DNA of 20,863 nucleotides from Fimbriimonadales bacterium (GCA_041744215.1 JBGTLG010000027.1:1-20863); one strand, 5' to 3'. Positions 3,217 to 20,863 are shown, counted from the stretch's first letter. Numbers and translations: made by a program. The notes: generated by a model not told the origin, from the letters alone.

Positions 3217-3238
3217 TTGCGGATTTTGGCACGCAATC

Positions 3239-3267: not shown

Positions 3268-3338
3268 ACTTGCGCTTCGCTGTCTCGCCTGGAGGCGGAA
3301 TGGCTCAAGGGACCGATGCCTTTGGAGGGACTCCGTCC

Positions 3339-5673: not shown

Positions 5674-5694
5674 CTACGCAGATCGCGCAAGCAC

Positions 5695-5734
5695 GAGGCC
5701 CCAACTCCACTTGGAATTGGGGCCTCAATTCTTT
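5695..5734 (+). terminator. Probable intrinsic terminator
   Basis: GAGGCCCCAA-CTCCACTTGGAA-TTGGGGCCTC, a 10-bp perfect stem (5695-5726) followed by AATTCTTT, 21 nt after the stop. Confidence 0.7.
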
Positions 5735-5764
5735 GATGCGCGGCTGGCGTCGGGTTCATAAACT

Positions 5765-5805
5765 GTAGAGGCCTCGGCTGGAGGGGAGTTCACCGAGGCC
5801 TCTGC
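5765..5805. repeat. Inverted repeat (hairpin)
   Basis: AGAGGCCTCGG (5767-5777) pairs perfectly with CCGAGGCCTCT (5793-5803), 15-nt loop; function unknown. Confidence 0.6.
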
Positions 5806-5980
5806 GGGAGGAGAGGGACAAAAAAGAGTCAAGCTTCTGCGCGCTGTATTTTTCTGACGAGTGGAGAATTGATTCCGTTCCGCATGGACTGCGGCGGACC
5901 TGACCGCTGAGTTCAAGCATGATGAAAATAAACGACATCCGGGAGGGCAGTTATCCTCGCCTTTTGCTTCGCAGGAAGAT

Positions 5981-6093
5981 CCCGAGTTCGACTCGATGCT
6001 GCCCATCACCCGTGAAACGACGAATCGCAACGCAAGGTACATTGAGAAGTTCGATGTTCGCAGACCGCAACTCTAAGACTATGGGACACCGCC
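5981..6093 (+). repeat. Diverged dispersed repeat, copy A (copy B at 20382-20493)
   Basis: 6032-6078 matches 20431-20477 at 44/47 nt; collinear upstream blocks CCCGAGTT, CCATCACCC and AACGACGAA. Confidence 0.85.
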
Positions 6094-6183
6094 GGACCCA
6101 ATCGAAACCTCAACGGGCCACCCGCCGATATCAAGATTGACTGTACCTGCACCCTACACGGCAAGCAGTGGAGGGATAAGAAA

Positions 6184-6555
6184 ATGGCTAAGTTCGCTTT
6201 TCCTGGTGAGCATACGAAGACCTTTCTTGCTGTTCTCACAGCACTAATCGTGCTTGTCGCGACCGTTATCTTTGCTCCCTATGTTCTTGGAAGAAACTTC
6301 GAAATCAAAGCGAGAACACTCATCGGTCAATCTCGACACGAGGTCACCGAGGTTTTCGGGCAACCCGATGATGTAGTTTCGATCTCAGAGGTAACAGCAG
6401 GGCTTAAGCGCTTTCCACCTGACGGATTCGTCCTAAAACCTGATTACAAACTGACAAGCGAAGTCCTTGTCTATAGGAACGCGCTGTATGGCAATATCTG
6501 TGTGTTCATCAACAAGGATGAACGTGTTGAGGCTGTCGCTCGCGCAGTTAGTTGA
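6184..6555 (+). CDS. Small membrane-anchored protein, SmpA/OmlA(BamE)-like motif; possible orphan immunity protein
   Basis: SD GGAGGG; one N-terminal TM helix; LIGQSRHEVTEVFGQPD resembles the GMSxxEVxxxLGxP motif. Confidence 0.65.
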   Translation: MAKFAFPGEHTKTFLAVLTALIVLVATVIFAPYVLGRNFEIKARTLIGQSRHEVTEVFGQPDDVVSISEVTAGLKRFPPDGFVLKPDYKLTSEVLVYRNALYGNICVFINKDERVEAVARAVS

Positions 6556-6651
6556 GGTAGTTTTCTGCGCTCAAGTGGGTGGACGGAGTAACCCCTTGCA
6601 AGCAACAGGCTAAAGGGAGATGACGGCAGCGATAGAGGAGAAGAAGAGCGT

Positions 6652-8148
6652 CTAACGACAAGCTAAAACGGGACTGCTCCTGTGGATCACGAGCGAGCCC
6701 TCCTTCTCGCTCAGCGCAGATGCGTGATCAATTCGCATCTTAGCGAGTGGCAGTACCCGTTGACTCCGCCCGCGCCGAAGATTCCCGGAGCAGACGCCCC
6801 TACGCTCCGCCCAGTACTTCACGCCTAACCTCGCGGGTACCATTGCTCTTCGAGAGCGGCTGTAGCTTAATGGTAAAGCTCCTGCCTTCCAAGCAGGTGA
6901 CGTGGGTTCGATTCCCATCAGCCGCTCCAGGTTGTTTGAACTTGATTTCCGTCCCATTCGCCTATCTGCGGTCTCTGAATTCTGTTCCACCCCCGACTTC
7001 GGTGTAGTATTCGGTGTAGTATCCTCCGTGAGTTCCAGCCCCAGCATTGCCTCGGCTACGTCGCTATCAAGCGCTTTGACATATCTCTCGGTTGTCCTAA
7101 TGCTACGATGGCCCGCAACAGAAGCGACAACCTGTATCGACGCGGTTCTAGCCAGGTGAGTGAGCATCGTGTGGCGAAGTTCGTGAACGCTAAAGGGGTC
7201 GTCGACGCCAATCGCTTTTTGAAAGCGCTGAAAGGAGTGATGGATAGATGACCGGTGGTAGGGCGTGCCATCCTCCTGGCAAAACAGAAGCCCGTTGTCT
7301 CGATAGTCTGGACCGACATTTTCGCGGTCGATCTCACGTTGCAAGATCGCCAGTCTGAGTGCTTGTAGTGCCTTAGTGTTGAGCGGCAATAGTCGCTGAC
7401 TATGGCTCTTTGCGCTTCTGAGATCCCACTGGCCATCCTTGATGATCAGTTGATGGCTGATGTCGATACTGAGAACACCCTCATTTTCAACAATGGCATG
7501 TTCCGAAATGCCAAGCGCTTCTAAAACGCGAACTCCAGTATTGAGCAGAAAAAGCAGAATCGGATAGTGGCGAAACTTGCCTGCGGCAAACTGTTGCTCG
7601 GCCTCTGTTAGCACTCGTTGCAATTCGGCTTTGTTCATCGACCGAACCGGCGGACACTGGTAAGCTGGTCTCTTCACGTCCTCTGCGATGTTATGCGCCA
7701 CTAGCTTATGACGTTTGGCGAAGTTGAGACAGCGCTGGGCGATGTCGGCTGTGTAGATTGCAGTGCGAGTCTTGCCGGTTGCGTGCAGCCCGTTGACGAT
7801 CCGTTGCAATTGGACTGCTTGTAACTCCGATAAGCGTAGCCGCGCCAGCGAAGCAAGGTGGTTTCTTCGAACGCTAGTGTAAGATTCGACGGTTCTCGGC
7901 GACACCAGCGGTTCGCATATCTCCATTTGCAACCACAAATCGAACGCTTGATCGAACGTGAGAGTCTTGACAGTATCACAGATCCCTCCGACAAGTGTCA
8001 GTTGTTGCTTGACTGCCTCGATCTTCCTCTCAAGCTCTGATTTGGTCTTAGCTTTGCGTACGATCCTCCGGCCATTAACAACGAGCTCCCAACGTAGATA
8101 GGAACCCTCGCGGCGTCGACTGCCTTCACCTTTAGCCCGACGTTTCAT
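6652..8148 (-). CDS. Tyrosine recombinase/integrase; about 406 aa lie downstream of the tRNA and the last ~92 codons run antisense through tRNA-Gly and host DNA
   Basis: N-terminal KRRAKGEGS arm-binding motif; catalytic residues in TGVRVLEA, SAKS, HELRH, GHRS and TTERY. Confidence 0.93.
   Translation of the reverse strand: MKRRAKGEGSRRREGSYLRWELVVNGRRIVRKAKTKSELERKIEAVKQQLTLVGGICDTVKTLTFDQAFDLWLQMEICEPLVSPRTVESYTSVRRNHLASLARLRLSELQAVQLQRIVNGLHATGKTRTAIYTADIAQRCLNFAKRHKLVAHNIAEDVKRPAYQCPPVRSMNKAELQRVLTEAEQQFAAGKFRHYPILLFLLNTGVRVLEALGISEHAIVENEGVLSIDISHQLIIKDGQWDLRSAKSHSQRLLPLNTKALQALRLAILQREIDRENVGPDYRDNGLLFCQEDGTPYHRSSIHHSFQRFQKAIGVDDPFSVHELRHTMLTHLARTASIQVVASVAGHRSIRTTERYVKALDSDVAEAMLGLELTEDTTPNTTPKSGVEQNSETADRRMGRKSSSNNLERLMGIEPTSPAWKAGALPLSYSRSRRAMVPARLGVKYWAERRGVCSGNLRRGRSQRVLPLAKMRIDHASALSEKEGSLVIHRSSPVLACR
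6856..6929 (+). tRNA. tRNA-Gly (anticodon TCC), 74 nt, encoded CCA
   Basis: Acceptor stem GCGGCTG/CAGCCGC, D-arm GCTT...AAGC, anticodon arm CCTGC-CTTCCAA-GCAGG, T-loop GGTTCGATTCC, 3' TCCA; -10-like TACCAT at 6838-6843. Confidence 0.97.
6998..7021 (+). repeat. Perfect 12-bp tandem repeat TTCGGTGTAGTA x2; candidate integrase arm-type sites
   Basis: 6998-7009 is identical to 7010-7021, about 70 bp inside the element from the tRNA 3' end. Confidence 0.7.
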
Positions 8149-8432
8149 GGCTTATGCTTCCCGATCCGCTTCGCGCTTGTCAACCCGGAGATTGAGTTTA
8201 TCGCACATTTTGTGCAAGAGGGCTCTATTGCGTTATCAACGAGGCTAGCCTGTCTCACTTCGTACTCTTCCAAGCTGGTTCTTAGAATGCGCTTTCTTTG
8301 GCCGCGATAAAACCATCGGACTTCTTTGTCCTTTATGAGGCCGTAGATATGATCTCTCGAAGATCGAATGTATCGTGCGGCTTCCGAAACACTAAGCGAC
8401 GAGCACTCATTGAGTGGTGTTCGGATTTTCAT
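8145..8432 (-). CDS. Excisionase-like HTH DNA-binding protein (95 aa; start revised to ATG 8432)
   Basis: LSVSEAARYIRSSRDHIYGLIKDKEV...RKRILRTSLEEY pattern; ATGA overlaps with both neighbours. Confidence 0.85.
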   Translation of the reverse strand: MKIRTPLNECSSLSVSEAARYIRSSRDHIYGLIKDKEVRWFYRGQRKRILRTSLEEYEVRQASLVDNAIEPSCTKCAINSISGLTSAKRIGKHKP

Positions 8433-8974
8433 CGGTCTCCTCGCTGTGACTTTTGGTGTTGGCGCCCCTGCACCCAAGTTGCCAAGGCCTTGAGTGAAGA
8501 ACATGAGAGCCGCAAGCTAATCTGTGTAACCGATCGCAGGGCCCGAAATGTGAAGCGCCAGACAGAGTCTCGTTGTTTGGGAAAAGCCAGCGACACAAAG
8601 CCAACAATCAGCAACGCCAAGACGAGAAGGCGAAAAGCTTCAGCCAAGAATGTCTCGACGCCAAACCCGGCAACAAACTCAAACAAGAGAGTGATGACTG
8701 AGAAAGCAACTGCGGATATCCTCCCAGCGTTATGGACTGCGGTTTTCAGGATGAGCAACGCCACGCTCCACGCGAGCAACAGGGCTATCGTGCGCAAATT
8801 AAGCGATCTGGCAGTATCAGTCAACTCATCGCTACCGCAACGTAAACAGATATCAGTCTTAGCTGGGTTTAGATGCCGCTTCGAGCACAGGCTGCCCCCG
8901 AATGACTTGCCGCAATGACCACAGTAAAGCGATCCGGCGGGCCAGAGCTTGCGACAACGAACGCAGAGGATCAC
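8429..8974 (-). CDS. Double zinc-ribbon protein with C-terminal TM helices
   Basis: CVRC...CGHC...CSKRH...CLRC followed by 3 hydrophobic segments; GTGA overlap with the upstream gene. Confidence 0.75.
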   Translation of the reverse strand: MILCVRCRKLWPAGSLYCGHCGKSFGGSLCSKRHLNPAKTDICLRCGSDELTDTARSLNLRTIALLLAWSVALLILKTAVHNAGRISAVAFSVITLLFEFVAGFGVETFLAEAFRLLVLALLIVGFVSLAFPKQRDSVWRFTFRALRSVTQISLRLSCSSLKALATWVQGRQHQKSQRGDR

Positions 8975-9813
8975 CGTTGCCCTCCTTTGGCGGTAACAGG
9001 GAACAGTTCCTGAATTCGTCTATCGTGTCGACGCCAGATTGGCGCGTCTACTCCGACGGCTGCCAGTTGGCCAAAGGTCGTTCCAAGACATCGGCAATCG
9101 GACTTGCGGGTTAGTCCCAACAGATAGTCTAGCCGACGCACATTATTTGTAATGAAGAGCAGGGTAAAGCTGTCACTTCCGTAAGTGTCTTGGAAGACGC
9201 AGTCCATGTAGCGCTCGTACGATTCGAGTTTAGCGATCAGCTTGGATTTTGAGACGTTACCGAGATCGACTTCGATAAACGCATCAGCGGACCTGCTTTG
9301 GCAAGAAACTCGAATGAAAGCATCCGGCTTTAGAATGTGGTAAGCCCAGGACTTATCTCGGCGCTCGGAGTATTCGTGTCGGCAAAGCGATTCGGGTAGC
9401 CAGGCTTCCATCGTCAGTTGCGCCGAGCAGACAAAGGCACACCGCACATCGACAATACGAAGCGTGTGCTCATGCAGGGATTTCGACGGGCCTTGCCTAA
9501 GGAGTTTGCAAAGCTCGCGCTTGGTTATTGCGTTTCCGTCATCGAGTAGTGGTTCCGCTTTCGTTCCAACTCGAAAAACGGAGTGCTGACCCGAGACGTA
9601 ATGGACGGCCGGTTCCCGGTGCATTAGCCGAGCGGCAACAAGCTTGGCGAGCCTGCGGTTGGCGCGGTTTGACGTTGAGAAGTACCCAAGCCGAAGTATC
9701 TGAAGGCTCGACATCAACTTATGTGCGAAGATGTCGTTTAGCAGCCGAACGTCGCGCTCGGTCAACCGAAGCGAAGAGTCTCTCTTACTGTCGGAGTTTT
9801 GGTTTGCGCACAT
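8971..9813 (-). CDS. Replication-relaxation (Replic_Relax)-like protein, wHTH plus PD-(D/E)XK-type domain
   Basis: RLTERD..LL...LQI, RRLAKL, HEHTL, KPDA, FIEVDLGN and KLESYERY motifs. Confidence 0.82.
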   Translation of the reverse strand: MCANQNSDSKRDSSLRLTERDVRLLNDIFAHKLMSSLQILRLGYFSTSNRANRRLAKLVAARLMHREPAVHYVSGQHSVFRVGTKAEPLLDDGNAITKRELCKLLRQGPSKSLHEHTLRIVDVRCAFVCSAQLTMEAWLPESLCRHEYSERRDKSWAYHILKPDAFIRVSCQSRSADAFIEVDLGNVSKSKLIAKLESYERYMDCVFQDTYGSDSFTLLFITNNVRRLDYLLGLTRKSDCRCLGTTFGQLAAVGVDAPIWRRHDRRIQELFPVTAKGGQR

Positions 9814-11185
9814 GACGCACCTCCGTGTGACGCCTGGGATCGTCTGTCTGTGTTTCCGCTTCCGGAGTTACCCAACGCTTGAGAATTTGCCGGCGCAGGA
9901 TGCGAGTATCGCCACCAGCCGGCTCAGATGCCAAAACGGTGCGGACTCTCCTGGCCTTGTGGGAGCGAACGACGAGAAACGCTTCACCGACCGGGAGGCT
10001 AAGAAGAGCCTCGTTCACCGCATCGCGTTTGCCTTGTCCGTGAATTTCGCTGGACAGCGCGGTAGCATCGCTAAGACCCGTCTGAAAAAAGACCTGAGTA
10101 TGAACGTTGTTGCGAACAACCTCCTTGAGCTTCGCAGGTAGCTGAGATAGATTTTGATGGGAGAGCACGAGCGACAAGCCGAAACGCCGACCTTCGGCAA
10201 TGATTGTTTCAAAAGATTCCGATGCCATCGTCTCGAATTCGTCGACCACAAGATGAACTTTGGATCTCTGGCTTTCCGGGTCGTCGGCTTTGGAGAGCGC
10301 CGCGCATTCGATCGCGGCGACAAGCAAACTACCGAGTAGCTCTGCCGCGCCGTGTAATCGGTGAGCGGCCAGGGCGACAAGGAAGACTCGGCCCGGGTAC
10401 TGAAGCAAACTGCGAAGATCTATTGATTGCTTTGCCTCCAGAACACGGCGCACAATCGGAACCGACAGATAAGGCGTTACCTTGTTGAGAGCCGCTCCGA
10501 CCCACAGAGACTGCTTTTCGGCAGACAGTTGTTCGTAACGCTCGAAAAACGATAGCACCAACGAATCATCGCAACTCTTCAGCGCTCGGCGACGAAAGAC
10601 TTTGTCGACGAGCAATCTCTCTAGATCAATCAAAGCTAAACTGGCGCAGGCAAGCGCGACCAATGCGTTCCGAAGCGATTCTTCGATCTGGACGCCCCAA
10701 GACTCGCTGTGGCGCCGAAGAATGCCGAGCACATGAAGCGCATTGGTGTGCGGATCGCCGCCACCAGAGAGAGGATTGAAGCCGACGATAAGCTCCCGTT
10801 CCCTTAGGTCCAAAAGGCAGAGCCGTTCAACGGCGTCGTTTTCGGAGATGTTGTCGGCAATCCGCGAGAGAATCTGGTCAATCAAATCGCCTCTAAGATC
10901 GATGACGCACACACTTTGACCGTTAGCGACCAGATGATCGATTAAACGCAACAGAAGATTCGTCTTGCCCGATCCCGTCGCGCCGAGAACGTAGAAGTGT
11001 CTTGCCAAGTCGTCGGGCAGTAGATAGATTTCCTCGTGCGGTTCTTTGCAATCGTGACCGAGCAAGAAACGACCTTCGGGGAAATCGGCTTTACTACTAG
11101 GCGCACTGCGTCGCGGATACAAGAAGCCAGTAGCATCCGATATCCTGATTAGCGCGTCTTCCACGATTTCGACTAGCGGTCTCAT
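9785..11185 (-). CDS. VirD4/TraD/HerA-like P-loop ATPase (type IV coupling-protein-like, 466 aa; start revised to ATG 11185)
   Basis: RHFYVLGATGSGKT (Walker A), VIDLRGDL, GFNPL, LVVDEF (Walker B), EGRRFGLSLVLSHQNLSQL; SD GGAGGG and ATGA overlap. Confidence 0.88.
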   Translation of the reverse strand: MRPLVEIVEDALIRISDATGFLYPRRSAPSSKADFPEGRFLLGHDCKEPHEEIYLLPDDLARHFYVLGATGSGKTNLLLRLIDHLVANGQSVCVIDLRGDLIDQILSRIADNISENDAVERLCLLDLRERELIVGFNPLSGGGDPHTNALHVLGILRRHSESWGVQIEESLRNALVALACASLALIDLERLLVDKVFRRRALKSCDDSLVLSFFERYEQLSAEKQSLWVGAALNKVTPYLSVPIVRRVLEAKQSIDLRSLLQYPGRVFLVALAAHRLHGAAELLGSLLVAAIECAALSKADDPESQRSKVHLVVDEFETMASESFETIIAEGRRFGLSLVLSHQNLSQLPAKLKEVVRNNVHTQVFFQTGLSDATALSSEIHGQGKRDAVNEALLSLPVGEAFLVVRSHKARRVRTVLASEPAGGDTRILRRQILKRWVTPEAETQTDDPRRHTEVRHVRKPKLRQ

Positions 11186-12465
11186 CGTGCCCTCCAAAGT
11201 TCGGCAAGCCGTGATCTTTGATGGCTGCGACCCGAAGAATTGCGATCCGGTAGCGTCTCGGTGATTGCATCCTCTGCAGCGAAGCTCGCGGCGGCCGCAT
11301 CGCTCTGACAATCCTCAAGGCGACGCTTGTCCGCAAGCGGGAGGTCGTCGTCAAGACTGGCTTCAAGCTCGGCGATTCTGTAGGCAAGCTCGGTGCGTCG
11401 AACGTGTAAAATGTACGCTTGCCTATGAGAGGCCGCAGCTTCGGCAAACTGCTCGGAGAGAAGAAACGTTTGCCGTTGCTCGGTTTTGGCGCGAAGAACG
11501 GCAACTTGACGTGCCGACTCAATGCCGCCGAAGAATCCGACCGACAGATAACAGGCGACAACCGGCAACGCCAAAACGAACGAAACGATAGATAGCTCCG
11601 TTTTCGAGAGCGAGAACGAGCGCAAACTGTTCTCTTCGGTTAGCGTCCGAAGCAGTCCGAGCTGCTCGACTTTGGCCTCTATCAAAAGAAAAGCGGCTGC
11701 CAAAGCGATAAGAACGATACAGACAGCAACGAGTAAGGCGTTAGAAACTCGTAAGGACCCGATTGCTTTCAGCTCGGCGCGAAAGCCAACGTATTCGGCG
11801 ACCGGAGTAAGCGCTGCTCCAATCAGGTAGATCACTGCCATGCCCAACGCCGCAAAGAGGATCAGTTGCAGATAGTCTAGCGAGAGATCGGAGAGAGTTA
11901 GTCCAGAAACGAGCAAGCCGAGACTAACGCCAAAGAGCGTTCCTCCTCCGAACACGGCCACCAGCTTCGCCAAAGCGTTACTAAGTTTGCTCTTTGGCTT
12001 CGGCAACGGGATACCGAGAAGCCCGGCAGCCGAGTAGTCGCTTAGCGGCTCGTCGTCTGCAAAGTCGAGCCGGGGTTCTTTACATCGGAGCTTAATGCCA
12101 ACTTTGGACGCTTTCGCTGCGGCTTCGGGCAACTGCTCTTCGAATCTATGATCAAGCTCCTTTAGATTGCGCTTACACTCATCAATTCTCTTCCCCACTT
12201 CGAGTTGCCTTCCTTCCTGTTTTGCTCTTAGCTCTGTCTCCAGCTGATCGCACTTTTCCTCGTGAGCGATAGCTGCGGCGGCTCTGAGGGCAGGAAAAGC
12301 GGTAACTGCATTCTCGGGCGATTCGCTAAGACGCTTTGTAAAACCCAAAAGCGCCTGCGGGTCGGCGGTGATAAGCGGGCGCATGGAGCAGAGCTTGCGC
12401 GGCAAGGCGTCGCCGTTTTCGTCGCGGCGTCTCGGAACAATGTTCGAGAAAACCCAGTTCATCAT
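11182..12465 (-). CDS. Hypothetical membrane protein (coiled coil, ~4 TM helices, coiled coil)
   Basis: 427-aa ORF with SD GAAGGAG and ATGA overlaps at both ends. Confidence 0.75.
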   Translation of the reverse strand: MMNWVFSNIVPRRRDENGDALPRKLCSMRPLITADPQALLGFTKRLSESPENAVTAFPALRAAAAIAHEEKCDQLETELRAKQEGRQLEVGKRIDECKRNLKELDHRFEEQLPEAAAKASKVGIKLRCKEPRLDFADDEPLSDYSAAGLLGIPLPKPKSKLSNALAKLVAVFGGGTLFGVSLGLLVSGLTLSDLSLDYLQLILFAALGMAVIYLIGAALTPVAEYVGFRAELKAIGSLRVSNALLVAVCIVLIALAAAFLLIEAKVEQLGLLRTLTEENSLRSFSLSKTELSIVSFVLALPVVACYLSVGFFGGIESARQVAVLRAKTEQRQTFLLSEQFAEAAASHRQAYILHVRRTELAYRIAELEASLDDDLPLADKRRLEDCQSDAAAASFAAEDAITETLPDRNSSGRSHQRSRLAELWRAR

Positions 12466-12557
12466 CGAACTCCTTCCAGGGTCAGAGCAGACTCGGCGTC
12501 GCGAAAGCCTCGTATCGAAGCGCGCTCACCGAGAAGCTTCAGTAGGTCCGTCCACTG
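12462..12557 (-). pseudogene. 3' remnant of the upstream gene of the element operon
   Basis: ...QWTDLLKLLGERASIRGFRDAESALTLEGVR* ends in an ATGA overlap with the 427-aa gene; further upstream it becomes antisense to the TPR gene. Confidence 0.45.
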
Positions 12558-13579
12558 GCTACGACACATCACCCGAAGGGCAAGCCAAAAAGCACGAGCG
12601 GAACGTGAGGCTGCTAATGCTCGACCTAAAAGAACGACCGGACCATCCCTTCGTCCACTTTTGCATCGGGATGGAATACCATTACAACCACGAGCACGAG
12701 CAAGCAATCCAGCACCTGATCCGCTCCATTAAACTATCCGGAAGCGGCGACACGATTCTTCGTAAGACTTGGGCGTTGCTGGCTGGATCGCTGGAAGCAC
12801 TCGGCAAAATCGATGATGCCCTCGAAGCCTACCGGAAAGGAATTGTGGCGGTCGGCAATGATCCCGACCTCTGTTTTGGGAGGGCGAAACTCCTCGATGC
12901 ACTCGGGAGAAAAGAGGAAGCGATCGCGAACTACTTCCGCGCCACTCAGGCGGATATCTCGGAGCACTTCTCGAGCTTCGACATTGGCATCGTCAACTAC
13001 AAGTCGTACCACAACCTCGGCAACATCTTCCTCGAACTCGGTAGATATGATGAGGCGAGAGAGGTCTGGCAGAAGGCGATGCAGGCGAACCTCTCCGAGA
13101 TCGGTTCCGCGCTCCCGCTGTTTCAAGCAGCTCTCCAACAAAAGGACTACGCAACCGCGAAGGAGTGCAAGGATCGCATCTTCCATGTCGCTGGCTTAGG
13201 AGAGAGCTTCTGCGTTGCCGAAGCCAACTGGCTCAATTCAATACAGGGCCCTGGCGCTGGCCTTGTGGCTCTTCAGCAGATCGCGCAGACGCACCAAACC
13301 GAGGGATCGATGCTGGTCCTCTGCCGCGAGCTCCTCGGGAGAGGTATGGAACGCGAGGCCGTTCCCTGGTTGCTTCGACTAAACGAGCTGGACGTAGCCG
13401 AGGCCGCGTTCCTGCTCGGCAGCATCGAGACCCAACAGGGAAACCATGAAGCGGCGCTGGCCTGGATGCACCGGGCACAACACCTTAACCCGGATCACGA
13501 GCCGACAGCGCGTCTCGTAGCGGCTCTCGAATCGAGGACATTGGCACCCGGCCCCGATCCTCCACGTCTAATGAGCTAG
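12551..13579 (+). pseudogene. 5'-truncated GT2-family glycosyltransferase/TPR protein (GT2 tail and TPR array only)
   Basis: GYDTSPEGQAKKHERNVRLL...PDHPFVHFCIG resembles the HxGY...KxERNxxLL end of GT2-TPR proteins, followed by several TPRs. No DxD domain and no credible start; the track start at 12368 lies within the opposite-strand gene. Confidence 0.7.
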
Positions 13580-13583
13580 CTGC

Positions 13584-13946
13584 ATGTACTCCGAAACAGT
13601 CCACGACCACGTCGGTAAGCCCCGTAACATCGGGCCGCCGGAGGGTCACACGCACGAAGGCACCTTCGGCACACCCGGTGAGGGACCGTACATTCGGATT
13701 TTTCTCAAAATTAGCGGAACCAAAATCGCTAAAGTCGGTTATCATACATATGGATGTCCTGCGGCGATAGCCTCAGCGAGCGTCCTCTGTGAAATGGTAG
13801 TCGGTCTGGACGTCAAGGACGCCGCCCGAATCGATGAAGAACAAGTGATAGGGGCCCTGGGAGGTCTCCCGGATGGGAAACGGAACCGGGCCGCAGAAGC
13901 CGTGGCCGCCCTCAAGGCGGCACTGGAGAGCGAACGAAATGCCTGA
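13584..13946 (+). CDS. IscU/NifU-N-like protein with degenerate Fe-S ligands
   Basis: MYSETVHDH..KPRNIG, TYGCPAAIASAS, LGGLPDGK and ALKAAL align with IscU, but the first and third Cys are absent. Confidence 0.85.
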   Translation: MYSETVHDHVGKPRNIGPPEGHTHEGTFGTPGEGPYIRIFLKISGTKIAKVGYHTYGCPAAIASASVLCEMVVGLDVKDAARIDEEQVIGALGGLPDGKRNRAAEAVAALKAALESERNA

Positions 13947-14166
13947 TACGCGACCGGTTTGCGTACCCGTAACAGACGGAGATGGCGGCGACCCGTGTGA
14001 CCCGAGTTGTCCAGGGGCCGACTCTGAAACGGCGATGTGCGTCTTCGGAAGGGCGAACAACCTACCTATATGGGTTCCTGTTTCAGCGGGCATCGCCCTC
14101 CTAAGCTCCGGTCAGGGGTTTTCCCCGTGTCCGTGGCCAAACAACAGTTCGATCGTAGAGGGTTAG
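13939..14166 (+). CDS. Small Cys/Pro/Asp-rich hypothetical protein (75 aa)
   Basis: SD GGAGAG at 13925-13930; ATG overlaps the end of the IscU-like gene; 5 Cys; fills the gap before the RHS SD. Confidence 0.55.
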   Translation: MPDTRPVCVPVTDGDGGDPCDPSCPGADSETAMCVFGRANNLPIWVPVSAGIALLSSGQGFSPCPWPNNSSIVEG

Positions 14167-14188
14167 AAGGAGAACTGGAGGAACAGCG

Positions 14189-17100
14189 TTGGAAAAGATT
14201 TACATTCCCTCCCCTGACGAAGCAGCGAATGCACTTGCGCACGAAAACTCAAGTCGGCACCCATACCGGCCAACGCCGAATCCGGTAACCGGGGAGTTGA
14301 TAGTTGACCCTGAGATCGTACTCAAAGCAAAGAATTACAACTTAGCGATTTCTTTCTTTTATTCTTCGCTCAGCCAACTCAACAGGGAGTACGGTGTGGG
14401 ACGAGCTGCGAGTGTTCGGGGTTACGTGATGTCGAACGTTTTCCATCCTGAGATTCCCGGCTCCGGCCAAGACGTTCACATCGTTCGCGGCGATTTCTCG
14501 ATGCACAACTATCAGAAAGTTGGAACAACGGGCAGCGTCACGACTTATGTTGCTGATTCCGCGGGAACCGTTTCCACGCTCAGTTACGACTCCACCGCCA
14601 ACGAATTCACCGAGTACTTCACCAATGGCCGTAAGTTCCTTTACGAAGACCAAGCAGACATTACTGTTTCAGGATACGATAAACATGAGCTTATTCGAAT
14701 TGAGGACGCTAATGGTATTGTGCAAACTTACGCCTACGCAGCCGGTGATGAAAACGGCCTTCTAAAAACCATCGAAGTCTACGGCGGACGCAAAGTCACG
14801 TTTGTCTACCAAGCTGCGGGAGGCAGCACGTCACTTCTTAACTACATCGAAGACTGGGGAGGAAGAAGAACTACGTTTCAATACGACAACAACCGCTGCA
14901 TGACAACGATGACTTCGCCACTCGGCTGCGTCACGCAATACGGCTACATCTCGGGCGGTCAGGCAGGATTCCTGTTGGAGACAATTCAAGATCCGAGGGG
15001 CTTTGTCACAACCTATGCCTACGACAACCAATGGAGGGTCGTCAGTATGGCTGCCGGTTCTGCAGTTTTTACATGGGTCTATGCTTCAAACGCGAATCGA
15101 ACGACGCTAATGTGGCCGACAGGGGCGGTCGTCACCTACAACTTTGACAATGAAGGCAACGTGGCAACGGAAGACAAGCCTGAAGGATACAGAGTTACGT
15201 ACGCTTACCAAAACCGGCTGCGAACAAAGATTGAGCTTCCGGCTGGAGTTATCTCAAGCCTCGCATACAATCAATCGCTCTGGCTCGTGGAGAAATCCGA
15301 TGACGCACTCGGTAACCGGACGACGTTTCAATACGATTCCTTCGGCAACCTCACCACGCTGGTGAACGGACTCGGAGAGGTAACCACCTTCGGTTACGAC
15401 GGCTCCGGTTCGACACACCGCAGAATCCGCATAACCGATCCCTTGGGCCGCGTAACCAGCTACGTCTACGACACTGACGGCCAGGTCGTCTCGATGATCG
15501 ATCCCCGTACGCTAACCACCCACTACAAATACGACACCTGGGGAAACGTCGCATCCATGGTGGATTCCCGGGGCGGGATCACAACCTACGAATACGATGT
15601 CCTCAACAGATTGACGACGGTCACCGACCCGTTAGCCCGCGTCACCACTTTCGCCTATGACGCTGGGGATCATCAGGTTGAGGTCACCAATCCGCTCGGC
15701 GAGAGATCCCAATACATCTACGACGGCTGCCTACTCCAAGCCGCCGTCGATCCTCTCGGGAATCGGACCACCTACGCCTACGGCCGGTATGACAACCGCA
15801 CATCGGTCAAAGACGCTTTGGGCAACATCACGACGTACGCCTACGACAACATGGGTTACCTGACGACGGTGACCGACGCGCTCGGCAACTCTTCCAAGAT
15901 CGCCTACAACAACGCCAAGCAGAAGATTGCCGACGTCGACCAGCTTGGAAACAGAACGACCTATGCCTATGACGGCAGCGGGCGGCTCGGCTCAGTGATG
16001 GATGCGAGAAACAACGTCACCACCAACGCCTACAACGCCAGGAGCGACGTGACCACTGTGACCAACGCTGTCGGCAACACGATGGTCTACGAATACGACG
16101 CTCTCGGGCGGCAAGTGTCGGTGAAGAGCGCGCTCGGCCAAGCCTCGACGACGGTCTACGACACGGTCGGGCAAGTCTCCGCCACCGTCGATCCGCTCAC
16201 CAATCGGACGACGTTCCAGTACGACGGCTCCGGTAACCGCACCACCGTCATCGACGCCAACGACAAAATCACGAGTTACATCTACCCGGCAGACTCGAAC
16301 CTTTTGGCGACAATGATAGACGCCAATGGCAAGACAACCACCTACCTCTACGACGCGGCCGGGCAGCAAACGACTATCACCGACGCACGAGGCAACTCGA
16401 CCGGATACATCTACGATCTCGCGGGAAGAACGAAGGCGGTCCGGGATGCTCTTAGCGGACTCGTCACCTACGGCTACGATGCCGCAGGCAGAACGATAAC
16501 GGTCATCGACCAACTCAGCAGAATCTCGACATCGCTCTATGACGCGGTCGGTAGGGTTACCACAAGCATCACCCCGCTGGGTAACGTCTCGACCTACGCC
16601 TACGATGCGGTCGGCAGGCAGATACGGATGACAGACCAGCTCGGCAACAGTTCGGAAAGCGTCTACGACGATGCGGGGCGCCTCAAGGCCAGTGTGAACC
16701 CACTCGGCCACCGCACGACGTATTCTTATGACACCGTCGGCAATCAGGTCACGGTTATGGACGCGAGGAACAACATCCAGACGACGGTTTTCGACGCCGT
16801 AAACCGAGTCTCGGCGAGCGTCGATGCACTCGGGAACCGCACGACCTATCTCTACGACTCAGCTGGCCGCAACACCACGCTGGTCGACGCCAGAACCAAC
16901 ACGATCGTATTCGGCTACACAGCCCGGGGCGAGCTGCTTTTCGAGAAAGACCAACTCGACCGCATCACAACCTACTCTTATGACAACGTCGGGAGGTTGA
17001 CGGCGAAGTTGCGACTCCCGGTCGGTGCATTGGGGTCGCCGACAAGCTACGGTTATGACAATGTAGGCAGACTCGTAACCACCTTGTATCCCGACTCCAC

Positions 17101-18001
17101 ACGCGTGACATATCAGTACGATTCCGTCGGAAATCGAACGACGATGGTCGACACGATTGGCACGACGACCTATGTTTATGACGCCTTGAACCGATTGACA
17201 GGCAAGACCGACCCAGGCTCATTGGTGCAAAGCTACGAATACGACGCGGCATCGCAGAGGAAGAAGCTGGTAGATCCCGACAACGGGGTGATGACGTTCA
17301 GTTATGATATCGACGGGCGTCTTGTGTCGTTCACAGATCCTGCGGCCAACGTCACGACGTATGGCTACGACGGAGCGGGCCGCCGCACGCAAGCAGCGTA
17401 CATTTCCGCACTCTTGCGCGAATGGGCCTACGATCCTGCGAGTCAGCTCATAACGATCGACGACATCGACTCTCAATCGGCCGATCCGTTGCAGCGTTTC
17501 GATTTCGCATATGATCCGGCTGGCAATCGGAACGCGATCATCGACTCGAACGGTGCCCACACGACGTACGTCTATGACGCCAAGAACCGGTTGACCCAAG
17601 ACCATACGACCGGCACCAACGCACACATCTACGACTACTCCTACGACGGAAACGACAACCGTTTGACTTCGAACGAGACGGGTGAAGTGACGACTTTCGC
17701 CTACGGACCGTCTAACCAGTTGGCGACCAGCGTCAATTCCGCCGGGATCACGACATACGTGTATGACTTCAACGGGAACCTGACCCGCGTGCAGGAACCC
17801 ACGAACAGCGCGCGAGCAACCATGACCTATGATAATGAAGACCGGCTCAAACTGCATAGGTATTGGGAAACTGGCATGGGCAGCGAGCAAGTCACGACGT
17901 ATGTATATGAAGGCGGCGGATTGAAGAGAGTCGAGATCGTTGACGGCGCAGTAACGACGATTGTTTGGGATGGAGACGAGTATCTCGGAGAGGTGCAGTA
18001 G
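14189..18001 (+). CDS. RHS/YD-repeat barrel protein (DUF6531-like N-terminus) lacking the RHS-associated core
   Basis: SD GGAGGA and TTG start; PNPVTGEL...FFYSS...YGVG motif; dozens of YD repeats (DxLGNRTTYxYD); ends at WDGDEYLGEVQ*. Confidence 0.93.
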   Translation: MEKIYIPSPDEAANALAHENSSRHPYRPTPNPVTGELIVDPEIVLKAKNYNLAISFFYSSLSQLNREYGVGRAASVRGYVMSNVFHPEIPGSGQDVHIVRGDFSMHNYQKVGTTGSVTTYVADSAGTVSTLSYDSTANEFTEYFTNGRKFLYEDQADITVSGYDKHELIRIEDANGIVQTYAYAAGDENGLLKTIEVYGGRKVTFVYQAAGGSTSLLNYIEDWGGRRTTFQYDNNRCMTTMTSPLGCVTQYGYISGGQAGFLLETIQDPRGFVTTYAYDNQWRVVSMAAGSAVFTWVYASNANRTTLMWPTGAVVTYNFDNEGNVATEDKPEGYRVTYAYQNRLRTKIELPAGVISSLAYNQSLWLVEKSDDALGNRTTFQYDSFGNLTTLVNGLGEVTTFGYDGSGSTHRRIRITDPLGRVTSYVYDTDGQVVSMIDPRTLTTHYKYDTWGNVASMVDSRGGITTYEYDVLNRLTTVTDPLARVTTFAYDAGDHQVEVTNPLGERSQYIYDGCLLQAAVDPLGNRTTYAYGRYDNRTSVKDALGNITTYAYDNMGYLTTVTDALGNSSKIAYNNAKQKIADVDQLGNRTTYAYDGSGRLGSVMDARNNVTTNAYNARSDVTTVTNAVGNTMVYEYDALGRQVSVKSALGQASTTVYDTVGQVSATVDPLTNRTTFQYDGSGNRTTVIDANDKITSYIYPADSNLLATMIDANGKTTTYLYDAAGQQTTITDARGNSTGYIYDLAGRTKAVRDALSGLVTYGYDAAGRTITVIDQLSRISTSLYDAVGRVTTSITPLGNVSTYAYDAVGRQIRMTDQLGNSSESVYDDAGRLKASVNPLGHRTTYSYDTVGNQVTVMDARNNIQTTVFDAVNRVSASVDALGNRTTYLYDSAGRNTTLVDARTNTIVFGYTARGELLFEKDQLDRITTYSYDNVGRLTAKLRLPVGALGSPTSYGYDNVGRLVTTLYPDSTRVTYQYDSVGNRTTMVDTIGTTTYVYDALNRLTGKTDPGSLVQSYEYDAASQRKKLVDPDNGVMTFSYDIDGRLVSFTDPAANVTTYGYDGAGRRTQAAYISALLREWAYDPASQLITIDDIDSQSADPLQRFDFAYDPAGNRNAIIDSNGAHTTYVYDAKNRLTQDHTTGTNAHIYDYSYDGNDNRLTSNETGEVTTFAYGPSNQLATSVNSAGITTYVYDFNGNLTRVQEPTNSARATMTYDNEDRLKLHRYWETGMGSEQVTTYVYEGGGLKRVEIVDGAVTTIVWDGDEYLGEVQ

Positions 18002-19089
18002 TGGCGCTCTCGAAGCGATACTTGAGTGTACAAGGGGAGATCGTCGGCGAGAAGGCTAGCGGCAGTTCTCGGATTGATTACCTGACCGACGCACTCGGTT
18101 CTGTCACCGCAACAGTCGACCAAAACGCGCAGGTTGTCAACACCTATCGCTACAAGCCGTATGGAGCGCAGCTTGCAAAGTCGGGAGCAGGTGCAGATCC
18201 GAGGTTTAGGTGGGTTGGGTCATGGGGTTACCGACAGACAGGCGTCCAGGTCTCAGATACTTACGTGAGAGCAAGACACTACTCAACCATTTTGGGTCGG
18301 TGGTGTAGCGAAGACCCTCTATACTTGGGCTCAACGTATGGCGAGGCTGATCCAACCGGCACGATTGATCCATCGGGGCTTATTCCGGTTCGATTTGAGT
18401 TTAACGCTTTCATAAACAAACGTATCGGCAAATTCCATAATGGAAGATACTGGACTGCTTTCCCATTTGGTTGGGTGTTCAAAATTATCACTCTGCCTCA
18501 CATTCGTGCCGAGCTGTGGGCTAGCACTAACGATCGTGGCCATGGTGAACCAGGCACCTCTAAACACACGTCTTGGGCTACTTGTGAAAGTGCTGCGCTC
18601 GGTGATCCGTCTGCGTGTAACACAGCAGTGAGAATGGGTACTTCGGCAGTCTTGATCGTCAGATACTCAAAGTTTACGGGAGAGCAACTGAGTAGTTTCG
18701 TAATCCCTAAGCTTGGTGTGTACAGAATGCCTCCCGTTCACTTCGCAAATCGGCTCGGGCCGTGTGCGAATCGTGCGGTGTTCCTTATTTCTGCTTGTAC
18801 CGGTTTTCTTCCCGCAAGTCAACGCTCCAGGAAAACCTGCATCGACTATCAGATTTTTGTCGACTTCTTCGTGGTTGCACCCGGGCGAGTTGGCATCAGG
18901 CTCCAGGGCAACCATGACATGTTCCCTGATTACGAAGCACTTGTTCTCGCGCCGGGACCGAGAAAACTGTTTTGGCGATACACCACGCCGTTCAAAGCGA
19001 TTGATGCTGGAGGGTTAGACATCCAAACTGGGTGGAGGCAACTCAGCTATACCGAAGTTGATGCCCCGACGCCGCCATGTTGCGAATAG
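18001..19089 (+). CDS. RHS repeat-associated core plus C-terminal toxin tip (362 aa; start revised to GTG 18001; predicted cleavage after DPSGL, tip 18382-19086)
   Basis: YLTDALGSV, YRYKPYG, YVRARHY...GRWCSEDP and PTGTIDPSGL; SD-like GGAGAGGT; TAGTG stop/start overlap. Confidence 0.9.
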   Translation: MALSKRYLSVQGEIVGEKASGSSRIDYLTDALGSVTATVDQNAQVVNTYRYKPYGAQLAKSGAGADPRFRWVGSWGYRQTGVQVSDTYVRARHYSTILGRWCSEDPLYLGSTYGEADPTGTIDPSGLIPVRFEFNAFINKRIGKFHNGRYWTAFPFGWVFKIITLPHIRAELWASTNDRGHGEPGTSKHTSWATCESAALGDPSACNTAVRMGTSAVLIVRYSKFTGEQLSSFVIPKLGVYRMPPVHFANRLGPCANRAVFLISACTGFLPASQRSRKTCIDYQIFVDFFVVAPGRVGIRLQGNHDMFPDYEALVLAPGPRKLFWRYTTPFKAIDAGGLDIQTGWRQLSYTEVDAPTPPCCE

Positions 19090-19099
19090 GAGGATTTCA

Positions 19100-20131
19100 G
19101 TGAAAGCCCAGTGGAGACCAATGATAGCCTTCGTCGCAGCATCTTGCCTAATCGGAATTGTTGTTTGCTCAGGGGTCTATCTCCTAAATGCTGGTCACGG
19201 TGAAGGGTGGGATCAGGCGATGCAGGAGATTTCGAGAAAGAGCGTCGATGCACCGCCCATATCAGCGATAGCTTTTTCTCAAGACAGTAAGACGCTTCTA
19301 GCGTGTGGCGACGGAATGATCTTCGTTTGGGACGTATCGCGAGGCGATCTCCTGTGGAAAAAGAAATTGCCATTGAAAGGGGCTCAGCGTGCAATCTGTC
19401 TTGATGACGGCACGTTTCTCGTTGGCGGTCCGAACTGGTACAGGATAGACATCGCAAGGAGGACGGTGGAGTTTGTTAGTCCTGTCGCAGGCACGGAACC
19501 TGATGCAACGACGTTGCTGTGGTCTCGTGACCAAAACTACTTGGTCTACATACACTCATTCGATAGCAAGACGAGGCGTGGCCGCGCCGCACTCTGGAAC
19601 GTATTCGAAGCAAGGAAAGTAGCTGAAGTCGCTATCAGCGATGCCGAGACCTTTGGAGTCTCATTCTCAGGTGATGGCAAGTACGTGGGATTTGGGCAAG
19701 ATTCCGAGGTAGCTGTCCACACCACAGCTGACGGCTCCTATTATACAGGCATACAGTCGGGAACCCCTGAGTTACCACGTATGGGCCCGCGCTCCATTGC
19801 TTTCGTTGGCCCATCGCGCTTGATGGCATTTTCAGATGCTGTCGAAGTAATCGTTATGGAGCCTGAAGGTCCGATTGATATCGTAATGGTCCCCTCGAGT
19901 GGACTACCTTCACTTTTTGCGTCCCAGAAGAGCTTTCTTCTTGCTGTAGTTGATCAAACGGTCGCTTTTTATGATGCAAGGGACGGCAAGCTGCTTGTTA
20001 CGTTGCCACGCACGATGGAAGTGGTTGACGTAGCATTTGGCGAAAGTCAAAACCTTGTTGCAGTTGCATTCGAACGCGGGATAGTGGTGCTGAGCTCGAA
20101 GCGTTTCTTCGTCCATCAAGTCTTGCACTAA
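19100..20131 (+). CDS. WD40-like beta-propeller with N-terminal TM/signal anchor; putative immunity protein (start revised to GTG 19100)
   Basis: SD AGGAGG overlaps the toxin stop; hydrophobic N-terminus; ISAIAFSQDSKTLLACGDGMIFVWD, VSFSGDGKY and VAFYD blades. Confidence 0.78.
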   Translation: MKAQWRPMIAFVAASCLIGIVVCSGVYLLNAGHGEGWDQAMQEISRKSVDAPPISAIAFSQDSKTLLACGDGMIFVWDVSRGDLLWKKKLPLKGAQRAICLDDGTFLVGGPNWYRIDIARRTVEFVSPVAGTEPDATTLLWSRDQNYLVYIHSFDSKTRRGRAALWNVFEARKVAEVAISDAETFGVSFSGDGKYVGFGQDSEVAVHTTADGSYYTGIQSGTPELPRMGPRSIAFVGPSRLMAFSDAVEVIVMEPEGPIDIVMVPSSGLPSLFASQKSFLLAVVDQTVAFYDARDGKLLVTLPRTMEVVDVAFGESQNLVAVAFERGIVVLSSKRFFVHQVLH

Positions 20132-20381
20132 GTACTGTCATCTGTTTAGCAGCGGGTGGCTGACCCGCCGGACCAAGGAGAGAAAACGGAGTGAAAGAAA
20201 TCGCAGTGAGAACAAGACTGGGCGGCGTGGGTAATGGGCGATCCGCGAGACGCGTGTGCTTCGGACGGGTGGCAGAAGTGACCATCGACAAGACACGGAA
20301 TGAAAAAGATGACAGCAGGAACAAAAATGCGTGCCAAAGGTGATGGGCGAGGTGCAACGCCCTCGATCCGCAAACAAAGCA

Positions 20382-20493
20382 CCCGAGTTTGCCCCAGCTT
20401 TCCATCACCCACCTAACGACGAAGCACGATGCAAGGCACATTGAGAAGTCCGATGTTCGCAGACCGCAACTCAAAGATTGTTGTGACCCCGCC
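20382..20493 (+). repeat. Diverged dispersed repeat, copy B (copy A at 5981-6093)
   Basis: 20431-20477 matches 6032-6078 at 44/47 nt. Confidence 0.85.
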
Positions 20494-20606
20494 AGTTTTG
20501 GTAGCGGCACGAGTGAGTTCTGGTCATGCCTTATGGAGGAGATTGAATGACAACGAGTTCATCCATGGCCAACACGACCGATGCCCCACCCCTGCCCCGC
20601 CCGTCA

Positions 20607-20863
20607 AAGTGACAACTTTGGCCTACGGCCCGTCTAACCAATTGGTGACCAGCGTAAACTCGGCCGGAACGACGACGTATACCTATGATTTCGACGGGAA
20701 TCTCACTCGGGTGGCCGAGCCAACGAACCAGGCGCGGACCACGATGAGCTACGACGGTGAGAATCGCCTCAAGGTTCACGAGCATTGGGACAACGGCATG
20801 ATGAACCCACAAGTGGCGACCTACCTGTACGAAGGCGGAGGCCTGAAGCGGGTCGAAAACGTC
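20607..20863 (+). pseudogene. Orphan copy of the RHS barrel C-terminal end, running off the window
   Basis: Frame from 20609: VTTLAYGPSNQLVTSVNSAG...YEGGGLKRVENV; 63/85 aa identical by hand count to the protein encoded at 17687-17941. Confidence 0.88.

Follow-up and report, generated by a model that had tools for sequence, protein, structure and literature searches.

A candidate T6SS-independent RHS toxin cassette with a two-gene cocoon and an IscU-fold accessory protein in Fimbriimonadales

Gene content of the locus

The stretch of DNA analysed here (20,863 bases, hereafter the window) is the entire contig C27 of a metagenome-assembled genome (MAG) of a Fimbriimonadales bacterium (GCA_041744215.1), which comprises 2.68 Mb in 42 contigs and is 93% complete. 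All public sequencing runs holding the window sequence are labelled hot-spring metagenomes. The right-hand part of the window carries a putative polymorphic toxin cassette of the rearrangement hotspot (RHS) type, in which the repeat shell and the core/toxin are encoded by separate genes and are preceded by genes for a tetratricopeptide repeat (TPR) protein, an IscU/NifU_N-fold protein and a small Gly/Cys/Pro-rich protein (Table 1). The initial annotation described six co-oriented genes with gaps of 4, 22 and 10 nt and overlaps of 8 and 1 nt, followed by an orphan module, and reading of the open reading frames (ORFs) bears this out. Its left gene boundary had to be moved, as there is no start codon at 12551 and the in-frame starts behind the upstream minus-strand gene are a GTG and an ATG further to the right. 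A scan for promoters and terminators returned sites no more numerous than in shuffled controls.

Table 1. Features of the cassette and of the adjoining DNA, numbered from the first base of the window
Feature	Position	Strand	Remarks
TPR remnant	12542..13579	+	open frame from 12368; candidate starts GTG 12605, ATG 12617
IscU/NifU_N-fold protein, 120 aa	13584-13946	+	Pfam NifU_N 1.2e-22; 4-nt gap after TPR ORF
Small Gly/Cys/Pro-rich protein, 75 aa, 5 Cys	13939-14166	+	8-nt overlap with IscU-like gene
RHS/YD-repeat shell, 1270 aa	14189-18001	+	RHS_repeat 3.9e-137; 22-nt gap before
RHS core/toxin	18001-19089	+	GTG start; 1-nt overlap with shell (TAGTG); TIGR03696 Rhs_assc_core
WD40-like protein, membrane-anchored	19100-20131	+	GTG start; 10-nt gap; AGGAGG 7 nt upstream
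Orphan shell C-terminal fragment	20429-20863	+	shell profile positions 982-1060, 1.1e-21
Integrative/mobilisable element	6652..12465	-	Pfam matches; abuts cassette
Junction between mobile-element side and TPR remnant	12525..12545		GT2-TPR homology begins; independent assembly breaks

Shell and core/toxin are separate genes

The shell protein matches the Pfam families RHS_repeat (PF05593; 18 stretches, 3.9e-137) and TEN_YD-shell, as well as the NCBIfam model YD_repeat_2x (TIGR01643; 14 stretches, 3.9e-103). The features initially ascribed to this barrel are upheld: the Pfam scan of the shell contains no PAAR, VgrG, WXG or SpvB domain, no signal peptide is apparent, the strongest 19-residue hydrophobic window reaching merely 1.12, and threonine makes up 12.3% of the residues versus 5.4% in the long ORFs of the genome. 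The shell ORF ends with WDGDEYLGEVQ and a stop codon, without an RHS core domain or toxin. The core is found in the next ORF, where residues 63-139 (of ORF 17965-19089) match TIGR03696 with 40.8 bits against a cut-off of 32.5. This ORF encodes the last shell strands, the plug and the DPxG motifs (EDPLY and IDPSGL, as read in the sequence), and its N-terminus, (V/M)ALSKRY, is conserved.

The division into two genes, which the initial annotation had also reported, is sound: the shell stop codon occupies 17999-18001, the GTG start lies at 18001 in another frame, and the arrangement is conserved in relatives. At seven of seven junctions read, the stop follows WDG(D/T)xYLGE and the new ORF begins with M(A/P)(M/L)xxRY (GTG-ALSKRY in the window), and a contig from another sample (X2), covering 17694-18153, has the identical shell stop and core start, with no difference. 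In L013 and L017 the second ORF begins one codon on, with the frame unchanged, and in L015, L016, L018 and the window it overlaps the first by 1 nt; such differing relative frames argue for separate, coupled initiation rather than recoding. A programmed frameshift or readthrough joining shell and core was considered and rejected, because the frame varies while the start codon and the N-terminal motif are conserved.

Across all loci, 84 of 90 core ORFs start at the beginning of the profile; 39 lie directly after a full shell, 8 after a shell fragment and 37 are free-standing complete genes, which occur up to four in a row. Long ORFs in which shell and core are fused number eight, versus 39 split pairs, and show that the two pieces together equal one canonical Rhs. 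Fused ORFs, of 1266-2031 aa, occur at L083, L091 and L099 (genomes G130, G129 and G117) and at L061, L062, L078 and L129. The first three, together with the unfused L084 and L086, form one clade of IscU-like proteins (support 99), and no small-protein gene was detected at L083, L084 and L086. Overall, shell and core/toxin are usually made from two ORFs whose translation is coupled.

The IscU-fold gene is linked to the RHS shell across the order

A profile of eight IscU-like proteins (A2) was searched against 228 genomes of the order Fimbriimonadales (E<=1e-15), yielding 101 places. IscU-like genes occur in 80 of the 228 genomes, with 5/19 in family f1, 74/175 in family f3 and 0/33 in the other three families. 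Of the 71 places with the best matches (E<=2.7e-33), 70 entered the analysis, on 68 loci including the window; a contig-end match in G140 and the 30 weaker places were left out. The loci were scanned with our own profiles for five gene families, the TPR remnant of the window being counted as a glycosyltransferase family 2 (GT2)-TPR gene and one unpublished genome (G011) being counted in denominators only.

A shell gene lies directly downstream of the IscU-like gene, on the same strand, at 55/70 places (51/60 of those with at least 1.5 kb of DNA downstream). A GT2-TPR gene lies directly upstream at 41/70, or 38/65 of those with at least 1.5 kb of DNA upstream, and anywhere in the fetched DNA at 52/70 (49/65 with the same amount of upstream DNA). 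Among the controls, none of 10 SufU loci of the order (8-19 kb fetched) has a shell, core, small-protein or GT2-TPR match, and four canonical IscU loci of the phylum are likewise free of shell, core and GT2-TPR genes; taken together, none of the 14 canonical IscU/SufU loci has a gene of these three kinds within ~9.5 kb. The RHS shell is thus enriched beside the IscU-like gene (55/70 versus 0/14). In line with the initial annotation, this RHS family has the IscU-like and Cys-rich genes, and in relatives also the GT2-TPR gene, as conserved neighbours in tight linkage.

The link extends to the shell subfamily. In five of five near-complete genomes, the only full-length match to the N-terminal 340 aa of the shell lies beside the single IscU-like gene, and the other RHS genes of these genomes match the shell N-terminus through the repeats only. 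The IscU-shell pattern spans 37 of the 68 genera of the order, and RHS-linked copies are found beyond it in at least eight further Armatimonadota genomes. One genome, G062, carries six IscU-like/shell units (L055, L061, L064, L065, L068 and L070), three with an adjacent GT2-TPR gene and three without. In the conserved unit, the gene for the multi-domain protein glycosyltransferase with TPRs is followed by those for the IscU-fold protein, the small Gly/Cys/Pro-rich protein (in some loci with a Hint domain), the YD shell and the core/toxin, after which come variable immunity-like genes and further toxin genes.

An IscU fold with a remodelled cluster site

The IscU-like protein of the window matches Pfam NifU_N (PF01592) over residues 1-115 with 80.8 bits against a cut-off of 22, and stays below the cut-offs of the NCBIfam models TIGR03419, TIGR02000, TIGR01999 and TIGR01994. 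Its initial description as a ligand-less IscU is right for the first and third cysteines and the histidine, all of which are lost, but not for the middle cysteine, C58, which is retained; aligned with SufU of the same genome, the four ligand positions read E, C58, N at the His site and R at the third Cys site. The LPxGK loop is also retained. Among 78 RHS-linked family members, the first cluster cysteine is lost in 77 and present in one only, its site being occupied by D in 46, E in 18 and G in 9, whereas C58 is kept in 78/78; the His is kept in 26/78 and the third Cys in 35/78. G32, G34 and P96 are invariant and K99 is found in 76/78, the strongest conservation falling on G32, G34, P35, G57, C58, P96, G98 and K99. 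Judging from the alignment with the host SufU, these residues are located in what we take to be the cluster-binding loops of IscU.

Thus, the family shares with IscU, NifU and SufU the full-length NifU_N fold and the middle cysteine loop, G-C-P/S-x-x-I-A, but differs from them in having D, E or G in place of the first Cys in 73/78 members and in the loss of the His and the third Cys from many members and from the window protein. The IscU motif LPPVK reads LP(E/D)GK in the RHS-linked proteins. Unlike the genes for IscU/SufU scaffolds, the gene adjoins the TPR remnant and RHS genes rather than a desulfurase or suf/isc genes. The host genome encodes a canonical SufU-type protein on contig C2, which argues that the IscU-like protein is not the iron-sulfur (Fe-S) scaffold of the cell. 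The name given to these proteins in public annotation, "iron-sulfur cluster assembly scaffold protein", is therefore probably misleading. The former cluster surface may be under a different selection, for binding of a partner, for a metal in some members or for modification of the cysteine. Given that each shell copy has its own IscU-like gene and that the enzyme may be missing locally, we favour a role of the IscU-fold protein as a stoichiometric adaptor or chaperone.

In a quick version of the IscU-like protein tree, 43 of the 83 inner branches are open and only the canonical IscU clade is firm (support 99). IscU-like genes lacking the first Cys (Cys37) and keeping His/Cys at the third site are also present in other Armatimonadota (L121, G281:C33; L125, G239:C29), where they are linked to glycosyltransferases, and the tree weakly places such forms in an intermediate position. 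IscU-like matches with one or two in-frame stops (TGA or TAA) were seen in G076, G082, G128, G129, G117, G053, G046 and G125; these may be decaying copies or assembly errors.

The small Cys-rich protein and its Hint fusions

The 75-aa protein of the window has no match in Pfam or NCBIfam, and its low-confidence AlphaFold2 model (predicted local distance difference test, pLDDT, 52) contains no secondary structure; the protein is predicted to be disordered. For the survey, a small-protein gene was defined as an ORF of at least 50 aa in the gap between IscU-like gene and shell with at least 36% G/C/P/S and at least three Cys. Such ORFs, often with five Cys, are found in 42 of 62 gaps. In an alignment of 32 of them, C34, P47 and C64 are invariant, a C-(V/L)-P-(F/Y) motif is frequent at the N-terminus and a conserved Cys is located 3-12 residues before the end.

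Eight more gaps contain Hint fusions, and a ninth fusion is located 3 kb upstream of a shell, so that a small-protein gene, with or without Hint, is present in 50/62 gaps. In these nine loci, an N-terminus of the small-protein type is followed by a domain of ~140 aa, the profile of which matches the gp41-1 mini-intein (3.3e-15) and a bacterial intein-like domain (4e-4); Pfam Hint families match it weakly. The hallmark residues of the Hint domain, namely C59 (Cys1), the block-B H125 and the terminal H186 N187, are invariant in the nine relatives. In the window protein the Hint domain is missing, and the conserved Cys is followed by an 11-residue tail. The fusions imply that the C-terminus of the peptide, at the conserved Cys, would be a processing site. 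Pretoxin-HINT and bacterial intein-like domains of polymorphic toxins (compare Zhang et al. 2012; PMC3482391) likewise combine the Hint fold, Cys1, the block-B His and the terminal HN with a location in a polymorphic toxin locus. Unlike these, the domain of the present cassettes forms the C-terminus of a small accessory protein, is not followed by a toxin and occurs in nine loci only.

The full-length enzyme resembles SunS and GmaR

Full-length GT2-TPR relatives are 938-1370 aa long and contain two Pfam GT2 domains and TPRs. Three GT-A domains can be distinguished, and four in the long forms, one of them being SunS/GmaR-like. At the sequence level, GT2 domain 2 with the start of the TPR region matches the solved structures of GmaR (4e-25) and SunS (2.9e-20) and PDB entry 7msk (7e-16), which is titled ThuS in the structural match list. 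The same region matches the SunS family model (TIGR04195) with E-values from 1.3e-23 to 2.1e-36, although two full-length relatives score 83.6 and 125.7 bits, far under the cut-off of 350. GT2 domain 1 is most similar to the mycofactocin glycosyltransferase MftF (2e-33), and the long forms carry an additional rhamnosyltransferase-like domain. The N-terminal 265 aa, which have no Pfam match, fold in a model with a pLDDT of 92.7 as a further GT-A domain, the best structural matches of which are SunS and ThuS, at a modest template modelling (TM) score of 0.45-0.49. Based on the SunS/GmaR/ThuS and MftF matches and the extra GT-A domains, the intact enzyme resembles a glycosyltransferase that acts on proteins or peptides in the cytoplasm and can assemble a short glycan.

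SunS and ThuS, S-glycosyltransferases of glycocins, and GmaR, the flagellin glycosyltransferase of Listeria, are cytoplasmic enzymes acting on proteins or peptides, as the cassette enzyme appears to be, and share with it a GT-A (GT2) domain followed directly by TPRs (PDB 7MSN, 7MSP, 7MSK and 22AO, by their titles). This fusion is present in the relatives but not in the window, where only the TPR tail is found. Furthermore, the cassette enzyme differs from SunS and GmaR in combining three to four GT-A domains in one protein of 938-1370 aa and in having no glycocin-type exporter nearby.

Truncation of the enzyme gene in the window

The label GT2-TPR, initially given to the first gene of the row, does not fit the window protein: Pfam finds TPR families only, with no GT2 domain, and the ORF matches the GT2-TPR profile (~1030 positions) over positions 699-1028 only (E 1.6e-98). 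Homology begins at ~12542 and covers the last ~330 residues of the full-length relatives. The product has lost all catalytic domains and therefore cannot glycosylate anything here, so that the proposed glycosylation of the barrel by a local GT2-TPR enzyme finds no support in the window. The reduction of the gene to a TPR tail beside a mobile element leaves the local cassette either working without an enzyme of its own or decaying.

In Logan contigs of run X1, the probable source sample, 11000-12545 and 12525-20695 are separate, at depths of 17.4 and 16.3. The 21-mer at the junction (12525-12545) occurs once in the genome, and the 5' part of the GT2-TPR gene was found nowhere else in this 93%-complete assembly. 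Simple insertion of a mobile element into the GT2-TPR gene was rejected as an explanation, because no 5' part exists on the far side of the element or elsewhere in the genome. We read the truncation beside the mobile element as real and possibly polymorphic in the population, the join being known from the MAG contig alone. Related enzymes encoded elsewhere in the genome are a 620-aa GT2-TPR protein on C35 and a 271-aa GT2 protein on C42. The former (L135, C35:5925-7787) has the organisation TPR-GT2-TPR, resembles domain 2 and the TPRs of the cassette enzyme and is encoded beside a MerR regulator and an integrase of the XerC-like kind; a related activity might be provided by it in trans.

Toxin tail, candidate immunity gene and orphan array

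The C-terminus of the core/toxin protein is a ~220-aa toxin domain of unknown family, with no Pfam match and no usable match in the ESM Atlas. The protein encoded downstream scores 30.7 bits with WD40 (cut-off 27), shows additional weak matches to propeller families and has a hydrophobic anchor at residues 8-26 (Kyte-Doolittle 2.46). Neither the toxin tail nor the WD40-like gene has a homologue in the 87 other loci or in the own genome. The WD40-like gene thus belongs to a variable, immunity-like module outside the conserved set, its product is a candidate immunity protein, and the two genes would fit a toxin/immunity pair.

The orphan ORF at the end of the window is homologous to the shell from about residue 60 and its DNA is 78% identical to the 3' end of the shell gene over 131 nt. 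The last 138 nt of the window (20726-20863) equal the start of contig C42, reversed, and an X1 contig joins 20863 to the copy of the shell end and then to an ATG-started MALSKRY ORF. On C42 (L134, reverse strand), the orphan shell end is followed by another complete core/toxin ORF (351 aa), an ORF of 313 aa that belongs to no family, a stand-alone 271-aa GT2 gene resembling GT2 domain 1 of the large enzyme, and a DUF932 gene, typical of mobile elements. Shell and core fragments are found also on the short contigs C13, C18, C19, C28, C29, C33 and C40. Accordingly, the orphan array is larger than the window shows.

The adjoining mobile element and chromosome

The integrative/mobilisable element to the left of the cassette encodes a tyrosine integrase, an HTH_17 excisionase-like protein, a double zinc ribbon protein, Replic_Relax, a TraD/TrwB-like coupling protein and a coiled-coil membrane protein. 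According to ARAGORN, a tRNA-Gly(TCC) lies at 6856-6929 (+), inside the 3' third of the 498-aa integrase ORF and past the Pfam domain of the latter; this points either to an over-extended ORF or to a tRNA that serves as the attachment (att) site. A search of 5600-13000 for att direct repeats yielded one 14-nt pair only, located inside the element, and no flanking repeat. Further gene families, each shared by up to 11 loci, comprise recombinases, integrases, restriction-like, ArdC-like and TraD-like genes, the restriction-like and ArdC-like labels having been given by reading the sequences, without a family scan. The recurrence of recombinase, integrase and TraD-like neighbours indicates that the cassettes tend to sit in mobile islands.

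At the left end of the window, positions 1-525 (+) contain a fragment of an integrase-core (rve) transposase gene that runs off the start of the contig. The region 866-4076 encodes a PMT_2-like glycosyltransferase, purQ, purS and a matrixin-like peptidase, and looks like ordinary chromosome beside the island.

Comparison with known RHS systems

RHS toxins are known mainly as type VI secretion system (T6SS) cargo, as Sec-exported wall proteins or as components of Tc toxins. No match to PAAR (PF05488), VgrG (PF05954) or TssC (PF05943) was found in the host genome, within its 93% completeness, and no genome of the order gave a match to the sheath protein TssC (0/228). The shell, core, IscU-like and small proteins contain no signal-like or membrane segment. 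Defence families of PADLOC gave nothing but a weak TPR match. Glycocin-type features, namely a C39-peptidase ABC exporter and thiol-disulfide oxidoreductases, are missing from the window ORFs and from the families shared by at least five loci; a leader motif was not formally searched.

The accessory protein of the present cassettes has an IscU fold and is not of the DUF1795/EagR family; a Cys-rich protein and a protein glycosyltransferase come in addition. With T6SS-associated Rhs effectors, for instance Rhs1 of Photorhabdus laumondii (PMC8636562) and the Serratia Rhs protein with its EagR chaperone (PMC4524185), the cassette shares the YD-repeat shell, the core with DPxG motifs, the variable C-terminal toxin, the downstream immunity-like gene, the orphan modules and, directly upstream, a small dedicated gene for an accessory protein. 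It differs from them in lacking PAAR, VgrG and the T6SS, and in that shell and core/toxin are usually separate ORFs. Measured against RHS polymorphic toxins in general, the repeat array, the core domain, the variable C-terminal toxin, the downstream gene (with its putative immunity role) and the orphan modules are all present, whereas the single polypeptide is not.

The TcB-TcC pair of Tc toxins is a YD-repeat cocoon of two polypeptides, the second of which brings the plug, the aspartyl-protease motifs and the toxin. The cassette resembles TcB-TcC only in being a two-piece cocoon; unlike there, the cut lies just before the core, so that the second protein brings only the last strands of the shell. 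The SpvB and beta-propeller domains of Tc toxins are absent from the Pfam scan of the shell, and TcA families were not searched in the genome. Searches of the literature on Rhs and polymorphic toxins in Armatimonadetes or Fimbriimonadales, on YD repeats in connection with glycosyltransferases, NifU and TPRs, on split Rhs cocoons and on S-glycosyltransferase mining, supplements aside, turned up no description of this gene set, as the initial annotation had anticipated. The available part of the text of Zhang et al. (2012; PMC3482391) does not mention NifU, IscU or Armatimonad. The accessory set is undescribed for RHS toxins, and the cassette is a natural two-gene cocoon.

Proposed function and alternatives

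Collectively, these observations lead us to propose, with a probability of roughly 0.65, that the locus is a lineage-specific, T6SS-independent polymorphic RHS toxin cassette of Armatimonadota, mainly Fimbriimonadales, in which the accessory proteins would have the following roles. Shell and core/toxin would assemble post-translationally into a closed cocoon, as the fused Rhs does. Many loci carry several complete, start-codon-bearing core/toxin genes; with post-translational assembly, one shell could take up any of several cargo subunits. The IscU-fold protein would have ceased to build Fe-S clusters and would serve as a shell-specific adaptor or chaperone by means of its former cluster-binding loops and invariant Cys. 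The SunS/GmaR-like enzyme would glycosylate a cassette protein in the cytoplasm, the candidate substrates being the small disordered Cys-rich protein, the Cys of the IscU-fold protein or the Thr-rich shell, and export would follow a route other than the T6SS.

Several observations weigh against this proposal. The surveyed genomes are related, so the counts are not independent events and overstate the number of such events. The link to the GT2-TPR gene is looser than that to the IscU-like gene: such a gene is missing directly upstream in 27/65 places and from all of the fetched DNA in 16/65, and multi-copy genomes carry IscU-small-shell units without it. Likewise, 12 of the 62 gaps are devoid of a small-protein gene by the criteria used. 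With the enzyme truncated in the window, the local cassette cannot depend on glycosylation unless this is provided in trans, and in a second assembly of what is probably the source sample a contig break falls on the site of truncation (12525-12545). Contact between the accessory proteins and the shell is presumed from the genes, and secretion is assumed from the kind of system; no exporter is conserved among the cassette loci. Finally, the IscU-like genes of L121 and L125 lie in large GT4/GT2/GT9 clusters (at least five GT4 genes, GT2, GT9, a pyruvyl transferase and a radical-SAM gene), with no RHS gene in the fetched DNA. This suggests that the IscU-like protein is linked to glycosylation as such, and that its primary partner may be the glycosylation machinery rather than the RHS protein.

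The toxin cassette proposed above can be given a more specific form that we consider unlikely as a whole. The repurposed IscU-fold protein, its Fe-S ligands lost but one invariant, exposed cysteine retained, would act as the dedicated acceptor or adaptor of the SunS-like TPR enzyme with its three GT-A domains. Together with the disordered Gly/Cys/Pro-rich peptide, in some genomes released or activated at its C-terminus by a Hint domain, they would make up a module on which the maturation or targeting of a two-piece RHS cocoon depends by way of glycosylation, the plug-toxins of this cocoon being exchangeable without recombination. The result would be a T6SS-independent, Armatimonadota-specific delivery route.

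In another explanation, two independent modules lie side by side: a glycosylated, glycocin-like peptide or a glycoprotein would be the product of the enzyme, the IscU-fold protein and the small Cys-rich peptide, and the RHS genes would merely share a competition island with them. The SunS/GmaR-like character of the enzyme, the Gly/Cys-rich composition and predicted disorder of the small protein, with its often five Cys, and the occurrence of Cys37-less IscU-like genes without RHS (L121, L125) would all be accounted for. Yet the IscU-like, small-protein and shell genes are duplicated together without the enzyme, the IscU-like gene stands in a 1:1 relation to the shell subfamily in 5/5 genomes, the genes in the window overlap or are spaced by no more than 22 nt, and neither a C39 peptidase/ABC exporter nor a thiol-disulfide oxidoreductase accompanies them in the window ORFs or in the families shared by at least five loci. 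Consequently, we regard this explanation as rather improbable.

Alternatively, the cassette might act inside its producer, where it could serve the neighbouring mobile elements in abortive infection or addiction, for instance, with the cocoon holding the toxin until triggered and no export taking place. This would agree with the lack of signal peptides and membrane segments in the shell, core, IscU-like and small proteins, with the lack of a T6SS or a conserved exporter among what was found, and with the frequent proximity of integrases, recombinases, ArdC-like and TraD-like genes. We give it only a slim chance, considering that no PADLOC defence family is matched, except weakly by the TPR, and that variable toxins, variable downstream genes, arrays of alternative toxins and orphan shell fragments are hallmarks of inter-bacterial polymorphic toxins. 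A chimeric contig, a frameshifted RHS pseudogene or a chance neighbourhood, which now concerns the left junction only, where the join at 12525-12545 is not bridged in the other assembly and the GT2-TPR gene is truncated at exactly this place, is very improbable, given that 12525-20695 is one Logan contig without differences (from a run that may be the source sample), that other samples bridge the IscU/small/shell (X3, 13622-14298) and shell/core (X2, 17694-18153) segments, and that the same gene order and split recur in dozens of genomes.

Implications

For the maturation and export of RHS proteins in phyla without the T6SS, Sec-wall or Tc machines, the recurrent cassette of Fimbriimonadales offers candidates for a new route. 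Its IscU-fold protein exemplifies the use of an Fe-S scaffold fold for a different purpose. Furthermore, the combination of a two-gene cocoon with arrays of alternative plug-toxin genes suggests that cargo is exchanged by the swapping of subunits rather than by recombination, and provides a ready system in which the loading of RHS cages in trans may be studied or engineered.

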